Below are positions 3,431 through 63,840 of a stretch of DNA of 64,000 nt, piece after piece. Each line of letters starts with the position of its first letter. Positions within the stretch are counted from its first letter, which is position 1. The notes under the pieces are model-generated. The model worked only from the letters and a program-made list of their open reading frames with translations, searched no databases and was not told the origin of the DNA. Location: the NCBI GenBank assembly GCA_037384945.1, contig JARRNM010000024.1:5297-69296 (forward strand), given 5' to 3'. The translations under genes were made by a program, and so were the position numbers. The DNA comes from Deltaproteobacteria bacterium (lineage in GTDB: Bacteria > Desulfobacterota > Syntrophobacteria > BM002).

Positions 3431-4879
3431 TCAATCCTCTGAACCAATCTCCTCTTCTTTGGGCAGAATGTGAGTTGAACTGCCGAGGAAGGCACCAGCA
3501 GCCTCCTCCTCGGTTTCCGAGAGAGTTGGATGGGGATGAATGCTCAGGGCAAGGTCTTCAGCCAATGCACCCATTTCCACAGCCAAGACCCCTTCCGAGA
3601 TCATTTCTCCGGCTTCTCGGCCCACAATACCCATGCCGAGCACACGTTCCGTTTCAGCATCGACGATGATCTTGGTCATGCCGCTGGACACCCCCATGGA
3701 AGCGGCGCGCCCTGAGGCAACCCAGGGAAAGCGAGATATCCTGACAGAGCGGTTTTCTTTGCGGGCGTTGTCTTCCGTCAGACCACACCAGGCGATTTGC
3801 GGATCGGTATAGACCACCGCCGGAATCGCTCTGACATCAAATGCCGAGGGTTTGCCTGCTATTACCTCGGCCGCCACCTTTCCCTCGTACATGGCCTTGT
3901 GGGCCAACATGACCCCGCCGACCACATCACCTATGGCATAGAGGTTCTTCTGGGCGGTTCGCTGCTGCTGGTCAACCAGCACAAAACCGCGTTCGTCCAC
4001 CTCGACTTTGGTATTCTCCAGGCCAAGATCTTCGGAATTTGGTCGCCGCCCGATGGCTACCAGTAGGCGGTCGAAAGTCTGTGTCGTACCGTCCGCGTCT
4101 CCTTCCAGAGTGACTTTCACTCCGGCACCATCTTCTTCGACACCTGTTACCTTGCTGTTGAAATATATGGTCTCGAAAAGACCTTCCAGCCGTTTTGCCA
4201 AGTTCTCTACAAGATCTCGATCCGCTCCGGGCATGATTCCATCCGTCATCTCTATGAGGGTGACCCTGCTGCCTAAGGAGGCGTAAACGGATCCCAACTC
4301 CACGCCAACGTAGCCGCCGCCAACCACTAAAAGTCTCTCGGGTATTTCCTCCAATGTGAGAGCTCCGCCGGAATCCATGATTCTGCCACCTGGCTTGAAC
4401 TCAGTTCCCGGTAAAGGTATTGGACGGGACCCGGTAGCAATAACGGCGTGTTTGAAGCTAATGTGGCTCACATCGCTCTCGGTGTCAAAGAGGCGGACGT
4501 GGTGGGGGTCTTCAAATCCGGCCCTGGCCTGGATGTATTCGACTTTGCGCTTTTTGCTCAACTGAGCGAGCCCTTTGGCCAGTTTGTCCACCACCTGATC
4601 CTTCCACTCACGGAGACGGAGGAGATCCACCTGGGGCTGGTTGAAGTCCAACCCCATTTTTTCGGCACCTTTGACGTCGTGGAGTAATTCGGATACATAG
4701 AGCAAGGCTTTTGAGGGAATACATCCGCGAAAAAGACAAACTCCGCCGGCTCTGGGCTCCATGTCCACTATGGTCACTTCCAAACCCAGATCGGCTGCAC
4801 GGAATGCTGCGGCATACCCCCCGGGGCCCCCGCCGATTACCAGAACCTCAGTTTCCTGGGTGAACTCTCCCATTACCAT
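3431..4879 (-). CDS. lpdA: dihydrolipoyl dehydrogenase (E3)
   Basis: GGGPGGY FAD-binding motif, redox disulfide GGVCLFRGCIPSK, and a second GGGYVGVE NAD-binding motif. Last gene of the 2-oxoacid dehydrogenase operon. Confidence 0.95.
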   Translation of the reverse strand: MVMGEFTQETEVLVIGGGPGGYAAAFRAADLGLEVTIVDMEPRAGGVCLFRGCIPSKALLYVSELLHDVKGAEKMGLDFNQPQVDLLRLREWKDQVVDKLAKGLAQLSKKRKVEYIQARAGFEDPHHVRLFDTESDVSHISFKHAVIATGSRPIPLPGTEFKPGGRIMDSGGALTLEEIPERLLVVGGGYVGVELGSVYASLGSRVTLIEMTDGIMPGADRDLVENLAKRLEGLFETIYFNSKVTGVEEDGAGVKVTLEGDADGTTQTFDRLLVAIGRRPNSEDLGLENTKVEVDERGFVLVDQQQRTAQKNLYAIGDVVGGVMLAHKAMYEGKVAAEVIAGKPSAFDVRAIPAVVYTDPQIAWCGLTEDNARKENRSVRISRFPWVASGRAASMGVSSGMTKIIVDAETERVLGMGIVGREAGEMISEGVLAVEMGALAEDLALSIHPHPTLSETEEEAAGAFLGSSTHILPKEEEIGSED

Positions 4880-4922
4880 ATGTTTCTCTCCCTCTTTCCA
4901 GATTACTTACCAAGTAATTGAC

Positions 4923-5334
4923 CACACAGAGCACAAAGGTCACAAAGGATAAACGATAGAGATCGTTAAAGTCGTTAAAGTCGTTGAAGTCGTTAAAGTC
5001 GTTGAAGTCGTTGAAGTCGTTGAAGTCGTTGAAGTCGTAAACGGTAAACGGTAAACCGTTGAAACTATTCCTTTCTCAGGTCTAAACTTTGAACTTGGAA
5101 CTTTGAACTTGGAACTTGAATCCTCCGACCTCCGACCTCTGACCTCCGACCTCTGACCTCCGTCCTCTGTCCTCCCGCGTCTGTCCTCTGTCCTCTCACC
5201 TCGTCTCGCTCGACATCCCGTCTCGTCTTACTCCATGCTCTATGCCCTATGCCTATGTCACAACGGACCACGGACCACGGACAACTGACACTCAACGGTT
5301 TCTACGATTTCAACGATTTCAACGGCTGTATCGT
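4923..5334. repeat. intergenic word-chain repeat region between E2 and lpdA
   Basis: About ten different tandem word modules in series (see finding 1). Confidence 0.95.
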
Positions 5335-6654
5335 TTACATATGCATCATGAGTTTCTCCGGGCTCTCCAGGACCTCGATGATTACATTGAGGAAGCGAGC
5401 TGCATCAGCTCCATCAGCTATCCGGTGGTCGAAACCAACACAGAGGGGAAGCATCAATCTCGGCACTACCTGGCAATTGTCCAGATCCCCCTGAATAACC
5501 GGTTGAAGTCGTGCCTGAGCGACGCCGAGAATGGCTACCTGGGGATAGTTAACAATAGGAGTGAAGCCGGTACCTCCCAGGGGGCCGACATTGGTTATGG
5601 TAAAGGTACCCCCGGCGAGCTCTTGGCGCTCCACCTCACCCTCACGAGTCCGCTCCGCCAGTTCATACAACTCGAGTGCAAGTTCGGTGATACTCTTCCG
5701 GTCCACATCCCTGACGACCGGAACTATCAGGCCCCGTTCAGTGTCAACCGCCACTCCTATGTGGTAGTAATTTTTGAGAATAATCTCTCCCTTCTTAACA
5801 TCCAGGCTGGCATTGAAACGGGGATGCTCCTTCAGGGCAGCAACAGCGGCTTTAAGAATAAACATGGTAAGGGTGAGCTTTCCGCCCTGCGTTTCGATTT
5901 CACTCTGATGCTTGCGTCGAAATACCTCCAGTTCACTGACGTCCGCCACATCCTCATGGGTGACGTGGGGAATTTGAGACCACGCCAGAGTCATACGGTT
6001 TGCTGTGGCTCTCCTGATGGAACGCAAAGGCTTTCTCTCTATAGGCCCCCAACTGCTGAAGTCTGGAAGCGGCGGCGGCGCAAGCTGAACCGGCCGTGAA
6101 ACCTCCGGCTGTTCAATCTCTTTTTCGGGAGCTTTTTCCTCCTCGACTTTCGTCGCCTTTGCCTGAGAGTAAGACCGCACGTCCTCAGCAGTGACCTGTC
6201 CTTGGGGTCCGCTGGGGGTCACCTGGCGCAGGTCTACTCCCAATTCACGAGCCAATCGCCGGGTGGAAGGAGCGGCGGGCACCGGTTCCTCTTTTCCCTC
6301 ATCAACCTTAGGCCTGGGCTCCTTCTTTTCTTCCGCAGCCTTTTCCTCAACCTTTCTCTTTTCTTTTTTTACTTTCCCTTTCTCTTTTTTCCCCGCGGCG
6401 ACCTCAGCTTCTTCTCCCTTCTCCAGGAAGGTCATAAGCACTTGGCCCACTTTCACCACGTCTCCCACTTTAACTGGAATGCTCTGGACGACACCGTCCA
6501 CCGGTGAGGGGATCTCAGTGGCCGCCTTGTCCGTTTCCACCACAAGGATCGCTTGACCGTCCTCGACCTGGTCTCCTTCGGAAACCAGAATTTCGACAAT
6601 CTCCGCTTCGTGGATACCCTCTCCTGGATCTGGCATCTTGAATTCCTTCGGCAT
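5335..6654 (-). CDS. dihydrolipoamide acyltransferase (E2)
   Basis: N-terminal lipoyl domain (VETDKA), a Lys/Glu/Pro-rich linker, a subunit-binding segment (PSTRRLARELGVDL), and the catalytic DHRIADGA motif. Confidence 0.95.
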   Translation of the reverse strand: MPKEFKMPDPGEGIHEAEIVEILVSEGDQVEDGQAILVVETDKAATEIPSPVDGVVQSIPVKVGDVVKVGQVLMTFLEKGEEAEVAAGKKEKGKVKKEKRKVEEKAAEEKKEPRPKVDEGKEEPVPAAPSTRRLARELGVDLRQVTPSGPQGQVTAEDVRSYSQAKATKVEEEKAPEKEIEQPEVSRPVQLAPPPLPDFSSWGPIERKPLRSIRRATANRMTLAWSQIPHVTHEDVADVSELEVFRRKHQSEIETQGGKLTLTMFILKAAVAALKEHPRFNASLDVKKGEIILKNYYHIGVAVDTERGLIVPVVRDVDRKSITELALELYELAERTREGEVERQELAGGTFTITNVGPLGGTGFTPIVNYPQVAILGVAQARLQPVIQGDLDNCQVVPRLMLPLCVGFDHRIADGADAARFLNVIIEVLESPEKLMMHM

Positions 6655-6704
6655 GGCAACTTCTCCTCTTCTGATGCTAAATGCGATGCTTGTGATTTTT
6701 CAAG

Positions 6705-6986
6705 CCACAGAGCTCACCAAGTCCCCGTCAATTCGTCGATTAGTCAACTCGTCAAATGGTTCAATGGTCAAAGAGTTAATTCGCCACTGAAGCTATTCAG
6801 AACCGTTTGACCTTTGGGCATGTTAACGATTTGGCTTCCTGCCTGTTACCTCGGCGCTCTAATCCCCGTCTCGCTCGTCTCGCCCGACATCTCGTCTCGT
6901 ATTACTCCATGCTCTATGCCTTCCCCACAACGGACCACCCCAGTGGAATGGACTTCGTATTCCACGGGGCAGGAGGACAACTGACA
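6705..6986 (+). repeat. composite word-chain element between E1 beta and E2
   Basis: Collinear with the reverse complement of 31224-31447. Confidence 0.9.
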
Positions 6987-6994
6987 ATCCCTGA

Positions 6995-7981
6995 TTAAGC
7001 AACAAACTTGAGCGTCTTTCTCGCTGCCAGCAGAATTCTATGCACCCCGGGCAGATAATCATTCTCCCTTTGAAAGAGGGGAATAATGACATCGAATCCC
7101 GTAACCCTGGCAATGGGTGCCTCCAGGTAGAGAAAAGACTTTTCCACCAGGCGGGACGCCACTTCCGCTCCGGGGCCAAAACTTCGATGTGCTTCGTGAA
7201 CGATTACTGCGCGACCGGTTTTTTGCACCGACTGGTTCAACAATTTGTCGTCCAGCGGCGATATAGTGAGCAGGTCGATGACTTCCGGTTCGACTCCGTC
7301 ACTCTTTTTCAGTTCTTCCGCAGCCTTTATGGTGGGCCGCATCATGGCCCCATAGGAGATCATGGTCAGATCCTTGCCTTCCTGAACGACTTCGGCCTTG
7401 CCCAGGGGAATGGTTTCTTCTTCATCGGGAACCTCTTCCCGGAAGGCGCGGTAGATGGCTTTGGGTTCATAGAATATTACCGGGTCCGGGTCGCGGATGG
7501 CGCTCACCAGCAAGGCCCGTGCATTGCGCGGCGAGGAGGGAATGACCGTTTTGAGCCCGGGGGTGTGAGCATAGTACGCCTCTTTGCTCTCGGAGTGATG
7601 TTCCAGCGCTCTCACCCCCCCACCATAAGGAGCACGCAATACCATGGGTACGTGAAAGCGCCCACCGGAGCGACCTCTCAAGCGAACGGCGTGATTTTCC
7701 ATCTGGTGGAGGCACATGTAGCTAAAGCCGGAAAATTGAATTTCACAAACCGGTCGAAGGCCGTAGACCGCCATACCTATGCTAACGGCGCAAATTGCCG
7801 ACTCGGCAAGGGGAGTATCCATAACCCGCTCTTTGCCGAACTTCTCTATAAGTCCATCAGTAACTCGAAAAACGCCCCCATCCACTCCCACATCCTCGCC
7901 CAAGACGATCACCCCATCATCCTGCTCCATTTCTTGGTGCAGGGCGAGGTTGATTGCTTGAATCATGGTCAATGCAGCCAT
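6995..7981 (-). CDS. 2-oxoacid dehydrogenase E1 component beta subunit
   Basis: Transketolase-like pyrimidine-binding and C-terminal domains. I chose the internal ATG (MAALTMIQAINLAL), which lies 4 nt after the E1 alpha stop; the longer ORF to 8077 overlaps E1 alpha. Confidence 0.9.
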   Translation of the reverse strand: MAALTMIQAINLALHQEMEQDDGVIVLGEDVGVDGGVFRVTDGLIEKFGKERVMDTPLAESAICAVSIGMAVYGLRPVCEIQFSGFSYMCLHQMENHAVRLRGRSGGRFHVPMVLRAPYGGGVRALEHHSESKEAYYAHTPGLKTVIPSSPRNARALLVSAIRDPDPVIFYEPKAIYRAFREEVPDEEETIPLGKAEVVQEGKDLTMISYGAMMRPTIKAAEELKKSDGVEPEVIDLLTISPLDDKLLNQSVQKTGRAVIVHEAHRSFGPGAEVASRLVEKSFLYLEAPIARVTGFDVIIPLFQRENDYLPGVHRILLAARKTLKFVA

Positions 7982-7985
7982 CGGT

Positions 7986-9083
7986 CTACTCCTTTTCTTC
8001 CTTTTCTGCCAATTCCAGGCTGAGTTCTTCTCGTTGTTCCTCGAGGTAGGGCGGTAATTCTTCGAAAACGTTGTCAAACATGAGCAAGGGATCCCCGAGC
8101 TCCTTTTGTTTTTTCTCGTAGCCTGTCACTGCTTCCTTGATCTCCTGCTTGATCTCTTCCTCCAGGGAATCGATCTCTTTTGCCGAAAGCAGGTCTCTGT
8201 CAATCAGGTATTTCTGAAATCGGCTGAGGGGGTCTCGTTTGGACCATTCTTCTAACTCTTCCTCCTTCCGGTAGCGTTTCGGATCGTCTGCTGTGGTGTG
8301 CATGGTCATCCTGTAAGTCACGCATTCAATCATGCTGGGCCCTCCTCCCGATCGACCCCTTTCCACACATTCCTTTGCCGCGGCATAAACTGCGAGTATA
8401 TCGTTTCCATCCACCTGCATTCCGGGAATGCCGTAGGCAAGAGCCTTTTGCGCCAGGGTCTTGGAACGGCTTTGCTGGGCCCGCGGAATGGAGATGGCCC
8501 AGTGATTGTTTTGGCAGACAAAGATAGTGGGAGTCTGGAATACCCCGGCAAAATTCAGGGCTTCGTGGAAATCACCTTCCGAGGTGGCGCCATCGCCGAA
8601 GAAAACCATGGCCACATTCTTTTTTCCCCGGTATTTAATAGCATAGCCTAGTCCTACGGCATGGGGAATTTGGGTGCCAACGGGGATAGATACGGGCAGG
8701 TTGTTGATGCCTTCTGGAATAGTACCTCCCTCGTTGTACCCACCATAGGCAAGGAGGACACTTTCGAGGCTCTTGCCGCGCCATACCTCTGCAGCCATTT
8801 CCCGAAAGGAGGGAAGCAGCCAATCGTCGTCCTCCAGAGTTGCAGCAGCACCCAACTGGGAGGCCTCCTGCCCCTTGATGGGGGCGAAGGTCCCTATACG
8901 CCCCTGGCGCTGCAGGCTTAGCAAGCGCTCATCAAACCTTCGGCTCAGCAGCATTGATCGGTGTAGTTTGATCAAGAGCTCCTCCGGCATGTTCGGCTCG
9001 AGCTCTTCGTCTACTTGGCCATCTTCGCTCAAAATTGAAAGGTATTCGATCCGGCAGGGGATATCAACTTTTTCTCGTGGCAC
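7986..9083 (-). CDS. 2-oxoacid dehydrogenase E1 component alpha subunit (TPP-dependent)
   Basis: TPP-binding GDGATSEGDFHEALNFA motif, GTG start. Substrate (pyruvate, branched-chain or acetoin) cannot be determined. Confidence 0.9.
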   Translation of the reverse strand: MPREKVDIPCRIEYLSILSEDGQVDEELEPNMPEELLIKLHRSMLLSRRFDERLLSLQRQGRIGTFAPIKGQEASQLGAAATLEDDDWLLPSFREMAAEVWRGKSLESVLLAYGGYNEGGTIPEGINNLPVSIPVGTQIPHAVGLGYAIKYRGKKNVAMVFFGDGATSEGDFHEALNFAGVFQTPTIFVCQNNHWAISIPRAQQSRSKTLAQKALAYGIPGMQVDGNDILAVYAAAKECVERGRSGGGPSMIECVTYRMTMHTTADDPKRYRKEEELEEWSKRDPLSRFQKYLIDRDLLSAKEIDSLEEEIKQEIKEAVTGYEKKQKELGDPLLMFDNVFEELPPYLEEQREELSLELAEKEEKE

Positions 9084-19055: not shown

Positions 19056-19345
19056 ACCACAAAGATCACAAAGAACACAAAGTAGTACCAAAAACCTAGT
19101 TTGATATCTTTGTGCACTTCGTGTTTTGAGCGGAACGAAGGATCTCGAGATTCTTCGTCGCCCCGCCATTAGCGGGACTCCTCAGAATGACAACCGAAAA
19201 GCAAGTTTCCGGAGGACACTAATTAGAGAATTGGAAAATTAGGAAATTGGTAAAACCGTGAACGGTAAACGGTGAAACCTAATACAACTGGTTGTCTAAT
19301 TCCCTAATGTCCTAATTTCCTAATTCTCTAATTCTCAACCCGCTA
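19056..19345. repeat. intergenic word-chain repeat region
   Basis: CACAAAG words, a 60-nt dispersed repeat (19133-19193), AATTAGAGAATT / CCTAATTTCCTAATTCTCTAATT words in inverted arrangement, and GGTAAAC words. Confidence 0.85.
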
Positions 19346-26125: not shown

Positions 26126-26265
26126 TGCAGGCACGGTGACCTGCCCTACGAATTATTGGTATATCTCAATGTTTTTTTCTGTAGGGCGGGGCACTGCCCC
26201 GCCCTCCGGTCGTAGTTTTCCGTCAAGGACGTTATGGAAGGCAGGCACGGTGGCGTGTCCAGGTA
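26126..26265. repeat. cluster of GC-rich hairpin repeats
   Basis: GCAGGCACGGTGACCTGCCCTACG, GTAGGGCGGGGCACTGCCCCGCCC, and a degenerate GGCAGGCACGGTGGCGTG. Confidence 0.8.
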
Positions 26266-26682: not shown

Positions 26683-27060
26683 CGGGAAGGCACGGACTTC
26701 GGCGAGCTCAGTCGAGCCGTGGCCTGCCCGCCATCGCGAGCCTGCTCGCTCAGGCGAGGCGGGCGGGGGGATTTTGCTGCCCACTGTTCGCTGTTAGCCG
26801 TCAGGGTGGCCGACTCTACTTCCTAAATCCCAAATCTTTACCCTGTGGAATCCCCCGTAGGGGGTCCGCCGGAGGTGGAATTCCACAGGGCAGGTCCGCA
26901 ATCCACAATCAACATTCTGTCCTCTGTCGTTTGTCCTCTAACCCCGTCTCGCCCGTCTCGCTCGACGTCTCGTCTCGTTTTACTCCATACCCTATGCCCA
27001 GTGACAGCGAAGCGCAGTGACCCAATGAGGCCGGAGGCAAGTGACGCGAAGCACTAGCTA
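26683..27060. repeat. intergenic word-chain repeat region
   Basis: A long GC hairpin (GGCGGGAAGGCACGG...CCGTGGCCTGCCCGCC), then TGTCCTC, CGTCTCG, TTACTCCATACCCTATGCCC and GTGAC(A/G)CGAAGC words. Confidence 0.85.
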
Positions 27061-27893: not shown

Positions 27894-27896
27894 TGC

Positions 27897-28365
27897 GTAG
27901 GGCGGGCGACCCTGCCCGCCATCTGAGTAAACCACAGAGCACACGGAGAACACAGAGAAAAGACAAAAGATTACATTGATATCTTTGTGAACTTTGTGCC
28001 CTTTGTGGTTCTCTCTCTGCTGGCACGTAGCGGCAGGCACGGTGGCCTGCCCTACGAGTCACCGGTCACTTTGTGACCTTCGTGGTTTTTGGTACCGGTT
28101 GTCTGCCAGCTACCCGCCGCAATCCTTTTGAGCAATGAAGCGACTCCTTGTCTTGAACTTCCTTGCTCCCGGCCCCATTAGCTGCTGGCCCCAGCGGATG
28201 GGGCTTTTTTTGTAGGGGCAGGCATGTTGGCCTGCCCTATCTCAGAGGCCAGAAGTCGGATGTCGGAGATCAGTCTGACCTCTAATCTTTGCCTGCTGCC
28301 CGCTGCCCGCTGTTTTTCGTGGTTGACAGGAAACAGAAACCTCTTGCCCACTGCCATACCGATCA
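27897..28365. repeat. intergenic word-chain / hairpin repeat region
   Basis: GTAGGGCGGGCGACCCTGCCCGCC, CACAGAG/CACGGAG words, inverted CACAAAG words, GTAGCGGCAGGCACGGTGGCCTGCCCTAC, GTCGGA words and CTGCCCGCTG words. Confidence 0.85.
28188..28211 (+). terminator. Rho-independent terminator-like hairpin
   Basis: GCCCCA-GCGGA-TGGGGC stem-loop followed directly by T7. Confidence 0.6.
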
Positions 28366-31166: not shown

Positions 31167-31450
31167 GTCGGCGGGGAGGGTCGCCCGCCCTACAGTAGGG
31201 CAGCCCACCGTGCCTGCCGCTGAGTCAGTTGTCCTTGATCAGTGGTCCGTTGCAGAAAAACAGCGAGACGAGCGAGACGAGAATCAGAGGTCGGAGGTCG
31301 GAAGTCAGAGATCAAATCGTCAACTAGTCGAATGGTCAAATAGTTCTGAATGGCCTCAGCGGCAATCTAATGGTTTGACTATTCAATCATTTGACCATTT
31401 GACTAATCGACCAATTGACTTCTCTGTGGTCTCCGTGGGCTCTGTGGTTT
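31164..31450 (-). repeat. composite word-chain element, inverted copy of 6705-6986
   Basis: In reverse complement it is collinear with 6705-6986: CCACAGAG, GTCAATTNGTCGATTAGTCAA, ATGGTCAAA, ATTNGCCNCTGANGNNATTCAGAAC..TTTGACC, CGTCTCGCTCGTCTCGC, CAACGGACCAC, GGACAACTGAC. Confidence 0.85.
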
Positions 31451-31479: not shown

Positions 31480-33594
31480 ATGTCTAAATTAGACAAAGAA
31501 AAATTTGTCGATCTTCGGGAAAGGGCGGAGCGGGTCCTGACCGAATCTCCTGGAGGGCTCCAAAAGATACCCACAGATGTGCAGGAGCTTATCCATGAGC
31601 TGCAAGTTAGAAGTGTCGAGCTGGAAATACAGAATGAACAGCTCAGGGAAACCCAGCTTGAGCTCCAGCAGTCGCATGACCGGTATGTCGAACTCTATGA
31701 CTTCGCCCCGGTTGGATATCTCACCATGGACAGCAATGGATTTATTGTCCAGGCCAACCTGGCTGTTTGCGCTTTGTTAAAAACACAAAGAAACGTATTG
31801 TTGACTCAGCCATTCAACGATTATGTGAAAGCTTCTCAGCGGAATGAATTTGAAAACCATCTCAGTCTGGTGAGCGCAACCTTGAGCAAACAAACCTGCG
31901 AACTCGAGCTAGTGGCCAGTAATCGCTCGGAGGTCGACGTTGAGATGCTAACGGTTCCCATTGACAGCCCGGATGATGACCATGCACTGTGGTACCGGGC
32001 AATCTTAACCGATATCGGTGAACGGAAGAGAAGGGATGAAGCCTTGCAACAGGCTTATGAAGAACTGGATCTGCGCGTGGAAGAGCGTACCAGAGAACTG
32101 GTGACGATGAATGAGCAGCTGAAAGGGGTCATAAGAAAGCGGGAGCAACTGGCACAGAACCTCCAGTTAGAAGTGGAAGAACGCAAGAAAATAGAGGGAG
32201 TCCTGCGAGAAAGCGAAGAACTTTTCCGGCGCACCTTTGATGAAGCGCCAATCGGTGCGGCGATTATTTCAACGGACTTTCGATTTAAAAGGGTCAACTC
32301 TGCATTGTGCTCCATCACGGGTTATTCTCAAGAAGAACTCGAGTCTCTCAGCTTTATGGATATCACTCATCCTGAGGATAGAGCGGATAGCGGATAACCT
32401 GAAAATGGCCCAAAAACTTGCCTCCGGTGAACTCCGCGATTATCAAGTGGAGAAGCGATACATACAAAAAGAAGGCAAAATTGTCTGGGTGCGTGCCTCC
32501 ATCGAAGTGATGCGAGATGAAGCAGGAGAGCCGATTTATTACCTGCCAATGACGGAGGACATCACAGAAAAGAAAAAGGTAGAGATTAAATTACGTGAAA
32601 GCGAGGAGAAGTACCGCCTGCTGATCCAGAATTTGCCGGGGGTTGTCTACAAGGGACAGAGAGATTGGTCGGTGGAATTCTTTGATGAAAAGGCTGAAAG
32701 GTTTACAGGGTACAAAGTGGAGGAATTTTGTTCCGGCCGGAAAAAATGGTCCGACCTGATCCTGGAAGAGGACTTCGACAGAGCCAAGGAACCACTCGTC
32801 AGGGCTCTTAGGACGGACAGATCCTTCCGGAAAAAATGGTCCGACCTGATCCCGGAAGAGGACTTCGACAGAGCCAAGGAACCATTCGTCAGGGCTCTTA
32901 GGACGGACAGATCCTTTGTCAGGGAATACCGAATAAGATGCAAGGATGGACAAATTTGTTGGGTGCAGGACCGGGGAACCATAGTGTGCGATGAAAAGGG
33001 AGAGATCCTTTCTGTGAACGGCGTTCCAAACTAAGGGTTGATTCAATGAGATATGGGGAAGTATCCAGCAAGATCTCTCCTGAGCTTGAGGCACTAAGTA
33101 GGAATCTCGAGGATGCCATAGAACAGACCCAATCTTTGATATTCAGGCTCAGCCCGCCGGTTCTTTACCAGGTTGGCTTGAGTGAGGCGCTGGAGTACCT
33201 GACCGAGTTGATGGAAACAAGTTATGGTATCCCCATCGCAGTAAGTTCTGAGTTAAACTCTCTGCTGCTGCCTGAAGATGAATCCGTCCTGCTCTTTCGA
33301 GCGGTGCAGGAACTGCTGATAAACATCGTCAAGCACGCTGGAGCCAGCAGATCCAGCGTAACTCTGAAAAGAAGTGATAATCAGGTGCAGGTTGAGGTTC
33401 AGGACGACGGGGTGGGTTTCGATACACGCCTATTATCAGCGCAAGGATCAGTGAAAAAGGGGTTTGGTCTGCTCAATATCCGGGAACGTTTGCACAATCT
33501 CGGTGGACATATGGAGGTTCAATCCTCACCTGGTGGCGGCACCAAGGTTAGCATCACAGCACCGTTGCCAACCGAGACTGGCAATACTCAATAA
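31480..33594 (+). pseudogene. multi-PAS NarL-type (HisKA_3) sensor histidine kinase with multiple lesions
   Basis: Three ORF pieces (31480-32397, 32237-33034, 33046-33594). There is a 7-bp tandem duplication frameshift, a 90-bp tandem duplication, and the H-box is missing ahead of an intact HATPase_c (GVGFD, GFGLLNIRERL). Confidence 0.8.
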
Positions 33595-34261: not shown

Positions 34262-34770
34262 TCAGGTCAAGGCGACACGGTGACAGGGAGACACGGAGAC
34301 GCGGCGATTAGAGATCAGCTGGCAGATTCCAGCGTGCAGCTTGCAGGGCAGGCCACTGTGCCTGCCGCTACATGTCAGTTGTCCGTGGTCAGTGGTCCGT
34401 TGCCACAAAGCGATTATGAATCGTGTTTTTAGATTGAAACCACGCCGGGATGGCGGGGACAGTGCCCCGCCCTACGGCACAAATCCCAAATCCCAAGCAC
34501 CAAATCCCAAACAAATTCTAAATCACAATTCTCCAATGTTCAAAACAGTGTCGTAGAAACCGCAGAAGTCGTAGAAATCGTATAAGTCGTCAATTCAGCT
34601 CACAGGAAGCTTGTCATCTGATCTCTGACTTCCGACCTCCGACCTCTGATCCTCGTCTCGCCCGTCTCGCCCGACCTCCCGTCTCGCCTTACTCCATGCC
34701 CTATGCCCAGTCCCCCATCTCATTTAAAAATCAGCATTTCTGAACCGACAAATCAGACTCCCTCCTATTG
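34262..34770. repeat. intergenic word-chain repeat region
   Basis: GACACGG words, two GC hairpins, AAATCCCAAATCCCAAGCACCAAATCCCAAAC, GTCGTAGAAA words, CCGACCTC words, CGTCTCGCC words and TTACTCCATGCCCTATGCCC. Confidence 0.9.
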
Positions 34771-34914
34771 TGTCACCTCTGGTTCTCATCGATAATGAAT
34801 CCATGCAATACATCCTGAATGGCCCTGGAGTACACGGAATAAGTCCCGCACAATCCTGCTGAGTTTGCTGGCTTTGACAAACTCAGAGAACTTAAAAAAG
34901 GGGTTTCGGCATCC

Positions 34915-37399: not shown

Positions 37400-37600
37400 G
37401 GGTGAAAATCCCGAAGTCCAAATTTCAAATTACAAACAAATTCAAAATTTCAATTCTTCGATTTTCAAAATATTCATACTTGCATTCAATATTGGTTTTG
37501 AATTTTGCATTTAGGTAATTGAAATTTGTGTGGGATTTGGTGCTTGGGAATTGGGATTCATGCCGACTAGGGTAGGCCACCGCTCCTGCCGTGAGCCGAC
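37400..37600. repeat. intergenic word-chain repeat region
   Basis: AAATTTCAAAT/AATTCAAAA words in inverted arrangement, the reverse complement of the CCCAAATCCCAAGCACC module, and a degenerate GC hairpin. Confidence 0.8.
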
Positions 37601-39694: not shown

Positions 39695-39862
39695 TAAAAT
39701 CCCAAATCCCAAGCACCAATTCCTAGGGTTTCAGGTTTAAGCGTTCAGGTTTCAGGGTTTAAATTTAGTCTTTGTGTTGTTTCTTTCTGACACCTGAAAC
39801 CTGACACCTGACACCTCAATTTGAAATCCGAATTCTCAAATCTCAAATTTCACATCTCACCT
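39695..39862. repeat. intergenic word-chain repeat region
   Basis: AAATCCCAAATCCCAAGCACC module, GGTTTCAGG words with inverted CCTGAAACC/CCTGACAC words, and AAATCCGAATTCTCAAATCTCAAATTTCAC. Confidence 0.85.
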
Positions 39863-39864
39863 CG

Positions 39865-42127
39865 CTACAACGGTTGCAGCGGATAGGATCCGCTAGTACC
39901 CGTAATCGTTTGCGCTTGGTACCCCGGCACCTTGATCTCCACCTCCGGTGATTCATCATACCAGGAGACCTCCAGCTGCAGCTCCGGTATATCTCCCTCC
40001 AGGCGCAGAGTTACACTCACCCGACCGTAGGGTGTGAGGGTCGGTCCAAACCGGAGTTGTTCTGCCGATTCCAACCATTCGGGAAAAACTCCAGATGCCA
40101 ATATGAGCCTGTCTGCCTCCTCGCGGACGAAGAGGTTGCGCATCATCATCACCCACTCCGCAGCGGCCCAGCCGTGCTGCCCGTCACCCATACAGCCTCC
40201 TCCGGTGATGGGGTGGATCGCCTCCGGCCACTGGCCGGTTGACGATGCCAGTGCCGCGACGCTCTCTATCAGTCTTTTGTAGCGAGAGTCGTTGCATCTG
40301 AGCAGCGATTGGGCGATGGACAAAGTCAGATATGGATTGATCCCCGAATGGATCATGTCCTGGAAGAAGCCACCGGAGTGGAAACACTGCTCCATGAGAA
40401 AATCGATGGTGTTTATAATTCTCGCCTCATCAGGCTTGGTAAGCTGCAGGGGGTAATCTGCTACCAGCGAACCGACGGCAGCAGCGTCCAAGCGGCGGTT
40501 TGGTGATGCGGGGATGCCTCCACGGCTTCTTGGTTGTGGAATCGCCTGAATGCTGGCAAACAGAGTATTTTCGAAATCGGAGGCAAGAGCTTCTATTTCT
40601 TCTTTCTTTGCTGATGAATGGAATATGCCGGCAAGGCGAGCAGCGCCTCTGAGACCGGCAATAGCCCAGAAATCATCCCAGTAGTAGTAATCGTTGGGGC
40701 CAAAGTGTTCAGCGCTGAAACCAGCAGGGAGAAGACCAGGGTGCTGCGCACTTTTTTCCCTGGGAACCCTTTTCTTCCTGATCCAATTTACCCCCTTGAG
40801 AAGGGCTTTCATCCAGCCGTCATCGAGGTTGCGCCTGCTCAGTCGCTGAAATCTGTCAAAGATCCACAGCACCTGTCCGTTTGAATCCCACTCGCCTTTC
40901 TGGGACTGAAAATAGCCGGAACGCTTTTGTCTGGAGAGAAAGCCGGTCAGCAAGCGGTGGCATCTCTCGGTTAATCCTAGTGCCAGGAGCCCATTGATCA
41001 TAAGGCAACCGTCCCGAAACCAGAAACGTTTATAGGTGTAAGGACCGGGAACCGGGTCAGCGGCCGAGAGGAGTACCAGGGTGCTCACCGCTGCCTCAAA
41101 GAGGAATTGCATCTTGGCATCCGGTATATTCAAGGTCGCGGTTTCGGCCAGACAGCCCGCCCAGGTCTGTCGCGGTCCGCGAATAGTTTCGCTTTTTGGT
41201 TGAATCTCCGGGCTCAGGGGTATGCTGATTTCGATCTTTTTATCATGGTTGTCGGTCAAGGGAAAAAGAGCGGCAGCGGTGGCCATGCCCACGGCACAAT
41301 CGACTTGCAGGTCTGATTCAGACTGGTACAGCTTGTGGATAACGTCGCCTTCGTCATAGTTGGAGAATAACATGCGCTCGGGACGCTCGCTCATCTTTAA
41401 CAACCTTTCTTTATTTACCAGCAATCCGGGGTGTTGTTCCACAAAGGCAATCTCCTCGATAAATTGAATCCCTTCCGGATTGTAAGGGCGGATTGAAACG
41501 GCGAGCCATCCCTCATCCTGCGACCTGCCCGTGATCTTTAGGGTCAGGTGCGGGGTGAGCCCTGAAAATTCGACTGCTGCAGCAGACTCCAGTTTCTGGT
41601 TATGCAGGTGACAGAGGGTTCTAACCAGAAGATTTGGTGATAATTCCAGCTGCTGCTCCACCTCCGGTAGTCGAGAGGGAAACAACCTTTTCCCATTGTT
41701 GGAGATAATCCAGAAGTCAAGGGACCAGCCGTCATAGAAAGGCGTAACTAACCCACGGGGATCGACAATTGGGTAGACAGGCAAGTCAGGCTGGCCAACG
41801 GCAGTCCAATTTCGGTGCGTCAGGTTAACGCAGGTTAACGTGACTAAAAGAAAAAGCCCTGGGAATAAAGGAGGGGTCGAAGGGATTGAACTGTTTTTCC
41901 ACCCAGTAAGGCCATAACCAATCGAGGTTGTTCTGTATTGCCTTGGTATTGATCAGCCCTCGGGCGTGAAAGATAATTCCGGCCCGCAATAATTCCATGG
42001 GCTCCTGCACCTCCGAAGGCTGGGCAAATCTACGCAATCGGGCCAGGAGAGAAACCGGGTCAATGACGCCGTAGGAACGGGCGGCCCGTTTGAGCAGAAA
42101 TTTCCATGGTATCCAGCGGGTGATCAT
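39865..42127 (-). pseudogene. GH15-like (alpha/alpha)6-barrel glycoside hydrolase split by a 10-bp tandem duplication
   Basis: ORFs 41825..42127 and 39865..41784. Removing one CAGGTTAACG copy restores ...FSHVNLTHRNWTAVGQPDLPVYPIVDPRG. The catalytic-domain-like sequence YKRFWFRDG is present. Confidence 0.8.
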
Positions 42128-42327
42128 AGTTCAAATCCGTTAGTCAAATCGTTGAAACCGTTCAAGTCGTAAAAGTCGTAGAAATCGTTCAAGTCGTAGA
42201 AATCGTAGAAATCGTCTATTTAGCTCACAGCTCACAGGGGCAAAACTGCCGAATAACGAATAACTAATAAGGGATAACGACACTGCGAGCTGCCAGTTGC
42301 CAGCAGCGAGCTGTCTTCCGTCGGCTG
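42128..42327. repeat. intergenic word-chain repeat region
   Basis: GAAACCGTTCAAGTCGTAAAAGTCGTAGAAATCGT (near-identical to nt 60-95), AGCTCACAG words, AATAACGAATAAC words, GCTGCCAG words and TGTCCTC. Confidence 0.9.
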
Positions 42328-54134: not shown

Positions 54135-54228
54135 TAGAGTTTTAGTCTTTACCCTATGCTCCATGCCCTATGTCATTTACACAACGGACAACTGACGACT
54201 GACAGCGAAGCGCTAGGGGGGTGGCGCG
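54135..54228. repeat. intergenic word-chain repeat region
   Basis: CCCTATGCTCCATGCCCTATG, ACAACGGACAACTGACGACTGACAGCGAAGCG. Confidence 0.8.
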
Positions 54229-55523: not shown

Positions 55524-55798
55524 GCCTAACCTCCTTCAGAGGAAGCCGTTCAATCGTTCGGTTTCGGCGAACTCGTTCTAACCGTTCAAATGATTGAAAT
55601 CGTTAAAAATAAAGTAGCCAGTAGCCAGCAGTCAGTAGGTAAGAAAAAAGACTCTTGCCTCCATCTTCTGGATTCTGAATTCTCTGCGTTTTCCTAAATT
55701 CGAAATTCTAAGTCCGAAATTCAAAATTGTTTTCTGTCTTCTGTCCTCAGTCGTCTGTCCTCCGACCTCTGACTTCCGTTATCCCTGGTCTCCGTGGT
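55524..55798. repeat. intergenic word-chain repeat region inside pilus cluster
   Basis: CGTTCAA/CGTTGAA words, GTAGCCAGTAGCCAGCAGTCAGTAGG, TCTGGATTCTGAATTCTC, CGAAATTC words, TGTCCTC words and CCGACCTCTGAC. Confidence 0.85.
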
Positions 55799-58989: not shown

Positions 58990-59077
58990 AATCCTGGAGT
59001 GTTGGAATAATGGAATATTGGGTACAGTTTCCAAGTTTCCATCATTCCACCATTCCATCATTCCCTACTCCCCAGGG
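58990..59077. repeat. short word-chain repeat
   Basis: GGAATAATGGAATATTGG inverted against CCATCATTCCACCATTCCATCATTCC. Confidence 0.75.
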
Positions 59078-59608: not shown

Positions 59609-59793
59609 TAAAATCGTTCTATCGTTCGCTTCCAGCGAACTCGTCCAAATCGGAAGAGCTCAAGCTGACAGCAGTCAGTGGCCAGTCCTTAATTTCGAAA
59701 TTTGAAATTTGCACTTCGCAATCTTCTTCTCTATGCTCCATGCCCTATGCCCCATGCGGCGAACGGGGTGGGCTACAACGGACCACGGACTCC
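59609..59793. repeat. intergenic word-chain repeat region inside pilus cluster
   Basis: CGTTC words, CAGTCAGTGGCCAGTCC, AATTTCGAAATTTGAAATTTGC, CTATGCTCCATGCCCTATGCCCCATGC and ACAACGGACCACGGAC. Confidence 0.85.
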
Positions 59794-60351: not shown

Positions 60352-60732
60352 TCTACTCTCCGAGCCTGTCAGTAGTCGGTCGTCCGTTGTTAAAGCCGTT
60401 CTATCATCAGGCTTCGCCGGATTGGTTCAAATCGTGAAAAATCTTAAGATCATCATCATGTTCAATTTTTCCGTGGGGCGGGGCACCGTACCCGTCTTAA
60501 GACTCTTTAGTGAAAAGCTCTCTGTCGGCCGGCACGGTGGCCGGCCCTACTCCTGAATTCTGGATTCTGACTCTTTACTCCTTGCTCTCTGCCCTATGCT
60601 CTATGCTCTATACTTACCGCAATCCGAAATTTACGTCCGGCTTCTGACCTCTGTCTCCTTTACCTTATGGCTGGCGCCCTGAGCCTTGTGCCCCTAGTTC
60701 CATGCCCCATGCCTAACCACGGACAATTGACT
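60352..60732. repeat. intergenic word-chain repeat region inside pilus cluster
   Basis: GTCAGTAGTCGGTCGTCCGTTG, two GC hairpins (GGGGCGGGGCACCG..., GTCGGCCGGCACGGTGGCCGGCCCTAC), CTGAATTCTGGATTCTGAC, CTATGCC words, and CCATGCCCCATGCC...CCACGGACAATTGAC. Confidence 0.9.
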
Positions 60733-63649: not shown

Positions 63650-63840
63650 CGTTGTTTGTCGTCTGCTGTCCGTTGTGTAAATGGCATAGAGCATAGGGCA
63701 TGGAGCATGGAGTAAATACAAAATCCTTCACTCTATGCTCTATGCCTCGCCAAATCCGCGATCCGAAATCCGAAATTCTGTCCTCTGCCAGCTGCCCGCT
63801 GCTTCCTGCCAGCTCGCAGTTCCCTTGCGCCTTGTGCCCT
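63650..63840. repeat. intergenic word-chain repeat region
   Basis: GTCCGTTGT words, inverted then direct CTATGCC words, AAATCCGAAATCCGAAATTC, TGTCCTC, and CTGCCCGCTG / CTGCCAGCT words. Confidence 0.85.

Follow-up and report, generated by a model that had tools for sequence, protein, structure and literature searches.

Short-word tandem arrays of the kind known as short tandemly repeated repetitive (STRR) sequences have been recognized for decades without an accepted origin or function, and they are documented mostly in cyanobacteria and in a few sulfur oxidisers. Here we analyze a 455-nt spacer made largely of such words (4880-5334), which lies between the genes for the E2 dihydrolipoamide acyltransferase and the E3 dihydrolipoamide dehydrogenase (lpdA) inside the minus-strand E1a-E1b-E2-E3 operon of an uncultured deltaproteobacterium. 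Coordinates refer to the window, that is, the whole 64,000-nt stretch of DNA that was analyzed (contig JARRNM010000024.1 of assembly GCA_037384945.1, positions 5,297 to 69,296). On balance, and with moderate confidence, we favor the view that this spacer is one copy of a lineage-wide, non-coding mosaic simple-sequence element that changes by slippage and module exchange and is tolerated as a passenger in the operon.

The classical STRR consensus heptamers are CCCCAGT, TTGGTCA, and CAACAGT. Such heptamers are reportedly cyanobacterial, and the tandem heptameric repeats of Nostoc are said to carry embedded small dispersed repeats. Our window shares with them intergenic tandem heptamers (period-7 arrays called with Tandem Repeats Finder, TRF, in many gaps) and a few word families that are dispersed over the genome and stand side by side; like the Nostoc small dispersed repeats, one hairpin (6941-6990) interrupts an array. 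It differs in its words, in its deltaproteobacterial host, in the 9-mers and 14-mers that join the heptamers, in a partly conserved module order, and in the strain-level inversion and replacement documented below. An interpretation made earlier from the letters of this DNA only (the sequence-only reading) had recognized an STRR style in the spacer. A chain of different short tandem modules is indeed present, but the resemblance is one of kind only, none of the three classical heptamers occurring in tandem in the window. The dispersal of the modules and their partial collinearity with other loci had gone unseen.

Long simple sequence repeats (LSSRs) are, in the summary of Mrazek 2007 given in PMC4679880, repeats with units of 5-11 nt. 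The arrays described here likewise have predominantly 7- and 9-nt units, extend beyond chance (9-mer x8.4, 7-mer x11.6), vary in copy number, and presumably change by slippage; however, LSSRs are a statistical class of single arrays, whereas our chains string many families together from one common vocabulary and in a common order. TAACTGA direct repeats occur in marine Beggiatoaceae, some Cyanobacteria, and Bacteroidetes, in a patchy spread that suggests transfer, as a single word repeated 2-6 times, for the most part in the same orientation and a few nucleotides ahead of start codons (PMC4679880). They, too, are intergenic heptamer direct repeats, and their CTGA core is found in our words CCTCTGA, CAACTGA, and CTGACAC. 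In contrast, many words are used here, with no orientation or start-codon preference, and the window holds no tandem and only three single copies of TAACTGA. In Geobacter metallireducens, multicopy elements of 3-5 tandem hepta- or octanucleotide units occupy tens of sites, often paired on opposite strands, with the consensus words GGACCGG, GTTGCTYN, TCTCCGTS, and MTYCTGA (PMC2700814). That host also belongs to the former Deltaproteobacteria, and dispersed tandem sites of 3-5 units are common to both systems. The likeness of words is by consensus only (CCTCTGA and CTTCTGA fit MTYCTGA, and CCTCCGT resembles TCTCCGTS), and GGACCGG was not found in tandem in the window. The Geobacter elements are separate short sites, described without polymorphism or turnover data, while those studied here are long concatenated chains.

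Bacterial interspersed mosaic elements (BIMEs), repetitive extragenic palindromic (REP) sequences, and REPINs lie between operon genes in both orientations, and an effect on mRNA stability has been proposed for them. BIMEs and REPs are mosaic extragenic elements of enterobacteria and pseudomonads built from few motifs (PMC3116915). The mosaic extragenic make-up recurs in our chains, which are accompanied by REP-like hairpins elsewhere in the window, but BIME blocks consist of palindromic units rather than tandem heptamers, and the E2-lpdA gap has no REP-like hairpin. The phenomenon is hence of the STRR/LSSR kind, has traits in common with the Geobacter multicopy repeats and BIMEs, and fails membership of the STRR and TAACTGA classes at the sequence level. 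Our literature search found no description of such chains in Desulfobacterales-type bacteria. Three features appear to be new: many families are concatenated in a partly fixed order, exact words are shared widely across environmental contigs, and change is documented both within a population and between strains.

Modules of the E2-lpdA spacer and their copy number

Besides the TRF calls, tandem DNA was counted under a separate strict criterion (period 5-16) and compared with shuffles. By this criterion, it makes up 1.4% of the window against ~0 in shuffles, and the largest block falls within the spacer (4962-5325, 364 nt, 75% covered), the runner-up reaching only 80 nt. Short-period tandem arrays fill about two thirds to three quarters of the spacer. 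The sequence-only reading had seen "essentially no unique sequence" in the gap, which is overstated, as about a quarter to a third of it is non-repetitive, namely 4880-4922 and 5059-5084. All ten modules of that reading lie where it had placed them, and TRF reported the arrays given below. Since both flanking genes are on the minus strand, its 5' to 3' listing is the antisense one, running from the lpdA start to the E2 stop; we keep this plus-strand order below.

The non-repetitive lpdA leader (4880-4922, minus strand) contains a Shine-Dalgarno sequence, GAGGGAG (4887-4893), and a small palindrome, ATTACTTACCAAGTAAT (4902-4918). It is unchanged across all assemblies, and the Shine-Dalgarno sequence is equally placed in the relatives L303, L305, and L306. 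The I words CACAGAG, CACAAAGGT, and CACAAAGGA (4923-4948, plus strand, like all arrays that follow) repeat with a 9-nt period and on the sense strand read CCTTTGTG... directly upstream of lpdA; their family is also found at 19058-19082, 27933-28007, and 31421-31448, and the equivalent position is occupied in L305 and L303. The A array (4962-5042) comprises eight full units and a variant of the 9-mer GTCGTT(A/G)AA (TRF: TCGTTGAAG x8.4, 4963-5038, 95% matches), forming a hypervariable variable-number tandem repeat (VNTR) 83-163 nt upstream of the lpdA ATG. The B array, GTAAACG x2.9 (5037-5058; TRF span 5037-5056), is invariant between assemblies and is separated by a short non-repetitive spacer with no TRF array (5059-5084) from the C array (5085-5120), a 14-mer AACTTTGAACTTGG x2.4 equivalent to the 7-mer AACTTKG x4.9 (TRF 5085-5117, 100% matches).

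The D/E heptamer array (5121-5202) counts ~12 units (TRF CCTCYGA x11.6, 5122-5202) and is likewise invariant between assemblies. CCTCCGA and TGTCCTC, previously taken for separate families, form this single array in one 7-nt register, which grades from CCTCCGA/CCTCTGA to CCTCCGT/CCTCTGT by single-base variants; D/E words recur at 31284-31310 (reverse complement), 34623-34649, and 55733-55779. The F-K-G core (5200-5257), the most widely dispersed unit, joins CGTCTCG..CGACATCCCGTCTCG, TTACTCCATGC, and (YCTATGC)n (TRF: ATGCCCT x3.4, 5235-5257), and the CGTCTCG "words" reported there come down to just two separated copies. The H-L unit, (ACGGACC)x3 ACAACTGACA (5259-5290), reads GTCAGTTGTCCGTGGTCCGTGGTCCGTTG on the sense strand (TRF: ACAACGG x4.4, 5260-5290). 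Last, the polymorphic A2 array (5292-5333), the 9-mer TTTCAACGA x3.7 (TRF: TCAACGATT x3.7, 5292-5324), is the reverse complement of the A family. A and A2 thereby form an inverted repeat that brackets the chain (arms 4991-5032 and 5292-5333, 42 nt, 81% complementary), with an outer 12-nt inverted pair at 4950-4961 and 5326-5337. The plus strand of the D-E-F-K-G block is 76% pyrimidine, with 46% C and 15% G.

Five more metagenome contigs, found by exact-protein look-ups in the five JGI samples 3300056879, 3300056896, 3300057003, 3300057004, and 3300057030, were compared with the window. They match it base for base in both the E2-lpdA and the E1b-E2 spacer and also downstream of lpdA, the exception being the two 9-mer arrays. 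The A array has 9, 10, 12, 12, 13, and 16 units across the six assemblies, with differing patterns of C/T units, and contig L213 has one extra unit in the A2 array beside the E2 stop. The gap lengths are 455, 464, 482, 491, 491, and 518 nt, so that all differences are multiples of 9, and the length polymorphism anticipated by the sequence-only reading is present in 9-nt steps; the heptamer and 14-mer modules are constant in all six assemblies. Repeat number is thus hypervariable at the population level in these short-read assemblies, as in phase-variable contingency simple sequence repeats. In contrast with the variable A array, an imperfect 9/27-mer array at 42146-42215 has equal length in four contigs, which fits slippage scaling with repeat purity, and slippage would be the likely cause of the variation.

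At this imperfect array, two Logan contigs (L208 and L209) stop 57-100 nt past the stop of the Usp gene (window ~42128-42230); word arrays of this kind break short-read assemblies. An artefact of assembly or sequencing could be imagined from these breaks and from the proneness of tandem repeats to misassembly, just as an unrecognized small protein or structured RNA could be imagined from a 76-aa open reading frame (ORF; 5065-5295, minus strand) in the purine-rich stretch. Either is extremely improbable. Five contigs from five samples carry the identical sequence, 9-mer copy number aside, so the spacer repeats are real and not created by assembly, and the sequence-only reading passes its own test of persistence in independent assemblies. 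The gap has stops in all frames on both strands, and the 76-aa ORF spans frame-shifting heptamer arrays and is not conserved in any relative's gap. No Rfam match was obtained at the gathering threshold in the whole window or at E<=1 in 4800-7100, and neither strand of the gap folded more stably than shuffles (z-scores -0.41 and -0.71).

Dispersal and turnover of the word chains

When the gap was aligned by BLAST to the remainder of the window, spacer words were found at no fewer than 12 other intergenic sites. In the window, the 9-mer family (13/13), TTACTCCATGC (4/4), and GACAACTGAC (5/5) are strictly intergenic. The 18-nt K-G word has 13 window matches against 0.03 expected, the 29-nt H-L pattern has 3 against 0 expected, and a 47-nt core (CGTCTCG...CGACATCCCGTCTCG-TTACTCCATGCYCTATGCC) is matched at 6874-6920 (94%), 26954-26999 (89%), and 34663-34708 (91%). 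The words also keep an order. H-L follows K-G at five loci (including 54149-54204, 59729-59790, and 63668-63715), D/E/F lie upstream of K on the same strand in the window chains, and the series 9-mers, CCTCYGA, TGTCCTC, CGTCTCG, TTACTCCATGC, (YCTATGC)n, (ACGGACC)n, GACAACTGAC is found whole or in part at ~10 loci, in both orientations. The sequence-only reading was to fail if close relatives had unique sequence in this gap and the genome held no word families elsewhere; the families occur throughout the window, and the spacer chain is not purely a product of local slippage.

A paralogous chain lies in the neighboring E1beta-E2 spacer (6655-6994, plus strand) in the same orientation, with the F-K-G core at 6867-6920 and additional TTGACCA-type and CTCTGTGG words. 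Its H-L word is split by the hairpin at 6941-6990 (CCCCGTGGAATACGAAGTCCATTCCACTGGGG, sense strand). We considered this hairpin as a mobile mini-element and rejected the idea, as it is single-copy in all data examined.

Inverted array pairs, in which an array is followed 16-40 nt downstream by its reverse complement, are common in the window (39727-39816, 59003-59064, 63684-63745, 27933-28007, and 19221-19334) and are potential long hairpins with tandem-repeat arms. Two families of REP-like GC-rich hairpins also adjoin word chains: GGCAGGCCACYGTGCCTGCC, with 8 window copies against 0.02 expected, and GTCGCCCGCCCTACRG, with 6 against 0.67 expected. Such hairpins stand beside chains at 26126-26259, 27895-28236, 31180-31218, 34347-34477, 37571-37590, and 60471-60546; none lies within 4880-5334, where palindromic REP units are absent.

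Beyond this genome, the exact K-G word was found in at least 120 metagenome stretches from estuarine, marsh, hypersaline, and freshwater sediment assemblies, where a rough estimate of the chance expectation is a few tens. The matches listed represent ~98 distinct contexts, with GC mostly 0.45-0.55. Among them, further YCTATGC units follow K-G in 61%, another array of period 6-10 lies within 200 nt in 52% (against 17% at random positions of the same loci), and CYTCYGA, TGTCBTC, and CGTCTCG arrays lie upstream of K-G on the same strand, as in the window. Degenerate family patterns were used for this count of word order, because adjacent units usually differ by one base and exact tandem 7-mers are too strict to inform. 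None of three word patterns tested occurred in 79 control loci from other bacteria, among them three Desulfobacterales metagenome-assembled genomes (MAGs); L001, the closest species representative to our host, has two of the three. Other words (CTGACAC and AGAATCC) do occur in those Desulfobacterales MAGs. In IMG/VR viral contigs, (CCTCYGA)x3 was found in 77 stretches (L218-L294) as arrays of 3-10 units. These are mostly single intergenic arrays, and many of the contigs are GC-rich. The arrays often sit just upstream of a start codon and often have sense orientation in the space that separates a stop codon from the next ATG, without a purine-rich ribosome-binding site; certain viral contigs hold many copies. 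The K-G word was found in only four viral contigs.

The orthologous gap was compared across relatives. In those whose E2 is 58% and 54% identical, the E2-lpdA junction measures 17 and 32 nt and contains only the ribosome-binding site. Within the clade with at least 77% E2 identity, the gap is always long, with a different chain each time and a common vocabulary. At 94% identity, its 231 nt combine 9-mers and AGCTCA words with CACAGAG words that form an inverted pair; at 88%, 274 nt with 9-mers, unexpanded GTCAGTCCTCCGTTG, ~150 nt of other sequence, and CCTTTGTG words; at 84% (L001), ~221 nt; and at 82%, 416 nt in which CACGAAGGT words, the K-G core, GAGGTCA words, ATTGCGA, and CCAGGAGT are joined by CTGACAC arrays paired in inverted orientation. 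The gap of close relatives thus holds word arrays as well, and not the unique sequence that would have spoken against the sequence-only reading. Short junctions in distant relatives together with differing chains within the clade identify the chain as a derived, lineage-specific filling of an ancestrally tight junction. Each lineage apparently rebuilds its gap chain from the common vocabulary. The K-G core occupies the orthologous spot in L001 and L306, and L305 carries unexpanded GTCAGTCCTCCGTTG where the window has GTCAGTTGTCCGTGGTCCGTGGTCCGTTG. The H array thus seems to have arisen in place, and the gradient of one-base variants in the single register of D/E likewise speaks for array birth in situ. 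Core identities of 89-94% between paralogues and ~86% to the orthologue (hand count) are too close to separate concerted evolution from common descent.

Turnover was also seen between near-identical strains. In the gap between the response-regulator and STAS genes (34262-34914), a second strain cluster from other samples (L295, L297, and L299-L302) has flanks 95-100% identical to ours and a different central chain, in which the 9-mer segment is inverted and the boundary hairpin GGGCAGGCCACTGTGCCTGCCG stands at the opposite end.

An alternative is a discrete non-autonomous mobile element of the MITE (miniature inverted-repeat transposable element) or REPIN type, which would have entered the gap as one unit, mobilized in trans by a transposase encoded elsewhere, with the inverted 9-mer arrays as terminal inverted repeats. 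Consistent with this, the core of the spacer is bracketed by its 42-nt, 81% complementary arms and the outer 12-nt pair, dispersed copies share 89-96% identity and are found in both orientations, presence varies between lineages, arrays often form inverted pairs, and the REP-like hairpins accompany the chains (GGCAGGCCACYGTGCCTGCC far above expectation). In addition, most window chains (9 of 11) lie on one strand, and a one-strand bias is the expectation for single-strand transposition of the HUH or RAYT (REP-associated tyrosine transposase) type. However, no full-length copy recurs, the copies being differing mosaics of sub-units. Moreover, the supposed terminal repeats are tandem words that also stand alone (42146-42215 and 34550-34590). 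Neither a target-site duplication nor a clean empty site was found at the spacer boundaries against L303, L305, and L306, relatives that carry other chains, and no transposase or RAYT was found among the 36 window ORFs scanned. We hold such an element to be quite unlikely.

Functional tests and the origin of the chain

A consensus scan found no sigma-70-type promoter on the minus strand and no intrinsic terminator in the E2-lpdA gap. We then examined the orientation of K-G in 88 distinct metagenome contexts among the matches listed. Co-directional gaps contain it 17 times in sense and 20 times in antisense, with 10 further occurrences in convergent and 4 in divergent gaps, so these contexts show no strand preference relative to genes. 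Among the same matches, the median distance from K-G to the downstream start is ~240 nt, and the G end of the unit often abuts a stop codon (median ~40 nt). A Rho-utilisation site was considered and rejected, as the C-rich strand of D-E-F-K-G is sense and antisense about equally often.

These data bear on the proposal that the arrays are cis-regulatory platforms, whose word families would be multivalent sites for a DNA- or RNA-binding protein (a global regulator, a nucleoid protein, or a CsrA/S1/Csp-type protein) and whose 9-mer VNTR ahead of lpdA would tune E3 expression or make it phase-variable. The words are conserved exactly over many lineages and are almost exclusively intergenic, the lpdA start is preceded, at 83-163 nt, by the variable 9-mer array, and the purine-rich sense strand is rich in GGA/GGAGG motifs. 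Comparable arrays of Geobacter metallireducens are annotated as putative global regulator sites, one of whose words, MTYCTGA, resembles CCTCTGA (PMC2700814); the TAACTGA repeats of Beggiatoaceae have been proposed as post-transcriptional regulator sites (PMC4679880); and promoter activity changed upon deletion of heptamer repeats in Nostoc reporter assays (bioRxiv 10.1101/2022.06.06.494920). Yet orientation and distance to genes are inconsistent here, sense and antisense placements are about equal, and convergent gaps, which need no promoter, are also occupied. Near-identical strains differ by replacement or inversion of the chain at one and the same locus, and every relative has a different chain, which is hard to fit to a locus-specific role in a housekeeping operon. 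Furthermore, the heptamer modules are invariant within the population, and no candidate binding protein was identified. A regulatory platform is therefore, in our judgment, unlikely, though by no means far-fetched.

We favor instead the mosaic simple-sequence element. In each such element, a limited common vocabulary of 7-9 nt words would supply short tandem arrays that are chained together, and elsewhere in the genome the chains adjoin REP-like GC-rich hairpins. Replication slippage would add or remove units in the purest arrays. Modules would pass between dispersed chains with words in common by recombination, gene conversion, inversion, or copy-and-paste, and this exchange would replace, invert, and reshuffle whole modules; the dispersal, the collinearity, and the strain-level rearrangements all argue for recombination or copying among chains as its probable source. 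In the operon, a chain would have been inserted or would have grown into the ancestrally tight E2-lpdA junction. There it is most likely co-transcribed in the operon mRNA, with lpdA translated from its own Shine-Dalgarno sequence. It would be a near-neutral or selfish passenger rather than a dedicated regulator, with possible side effects on E2/E3 coupling or mRNA stability.

Several observations weigh against this explanation. Nine of the 11 window chains share the plus-strand orientation whatever the gene direction (two-sided binomial p ~0.07), an excess that could hint at a replication-linked, strand-specific mechanism. At 80-143 nt, the A array nears read or k-mer length, and its unit counts from short reads are possibly partly mis-resolved; the change in A2 is not attributable to this, because that array is short (33-42 nt). 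Co-transcription and promoter absence are both read from sigma-70-type consensus scans, with other promoter types outside their scope. Neither intermediates of recombination or transposition nor a target-site duplication or an associated enzyme came to light. Finally, the exact K-G word is kept in at least 120 contigs from many environments and at the orthologous spot at 82-84% E2 identity, a conservation that exceeds that of purely neutral simple sequence and points to constraint (e.g. by a binding protein) or to frequent copying, horizontally or within genomes. That exact words persist across many lineages sits poorly with the disposability implied by turnover, and this is the main unexplained point.

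A more far-reaching idea, which we find quite doubtful, is that a dedicated undescribed system, made of word-specific nucleic-acid-binding proteins or of a templated repeat-adding or repeat-copying enzyme, writes and maintains an intergenic "code" in a large group of sediment Desulfobacterota-like bacteria, with the common vocabulary and partly fixed word order as its product. If so, the chains would be functional landmarks of chromosomes or transcripts, and phages of these bacteria would make use of some words as well, (CCTCYGA)n for example.

Operon, host, and significance

The genes that the sequence-only reading had named on either side of the spacer are corroborated by Pfam domains. The downstream gene of the operon, lpdA (3431-4879, minus strand), encodes a protein with Pyr_redox_2 and Pyr_redox_dim that is identical on five metagenome contigs (exact-protein look-up), and the upstream E2 gene (5335-6654, minus strand; stop TAA at 5335-5337) encodes 2-oxoacid_dh, Biotin_lipoyl, and E3_binding. 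E1beta (6995-c.7981) and E1alpha (7986-9083), both on the minus strand, are the rest of the operon. The other window genes are ordinary chromosomal ones (trehalose metabolism, Mla transport, chemotaxis, two-component systems, and type IV pilus/secretin), and a crude ORF call assigns only ~75% of the window to coding sequence, leaving ~25% non-coding. The host is an uncultured deltaproteobacterial (Desulfobacterota-type) MAG, neither a cyanobacterium nor a sulfur oxidiser. Its closest species representative, L001, is a "Deltaproteobacteria bacterium" MAG with 84% E2 identity, beyond which come Desulfobacterales MAGs at 53-58% and cultured Syntrophobacteria-type strains at ~61-64%.

Two tandem duplications were noticed within genes. 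At 41821-41840, a 10-bp duplication (CGTTAACCTG x2) frameshifts a gene that is intact as a 750-aa ORF in contigs L204 and L205, which reflects either a genuine disruption or a difference between assemblies. At 32737-32916, a 90-bp duplication (97% matches) lies in frame in a PAS sensor-kinase ORF and repeats a 30-aa segment. This kinase is seemingly split in the window (ORFs 31480-32397, 32237-33034, and 33046-33594) compared with a 755-aa kinase on contig L298. Together, the 10-bp and 90-bp duplications suggest that a tandem-duplication process is active elsewhere in the same genome.

The results extend a long-known phenomenon to an uncultured deltaproteobacterial lineage and give it testable features: a limited vocabulary, a partly conserved order, and exact words in at least 120 sediment contigs and in phage-like contigs. 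They also provide direct evidence of fast change, in 9-nt steps within one population and as inversion or replacement between strains with identical flanks, which makes the chains usable as high-resolution strain markers. For the genome that carries them, the chains inflate intergenic DNA, and the same duplication process can frameshift genes. If a protein or enzyme recognizes the words, it would establish a new layer of genome organization in abundant sediment bacteria.

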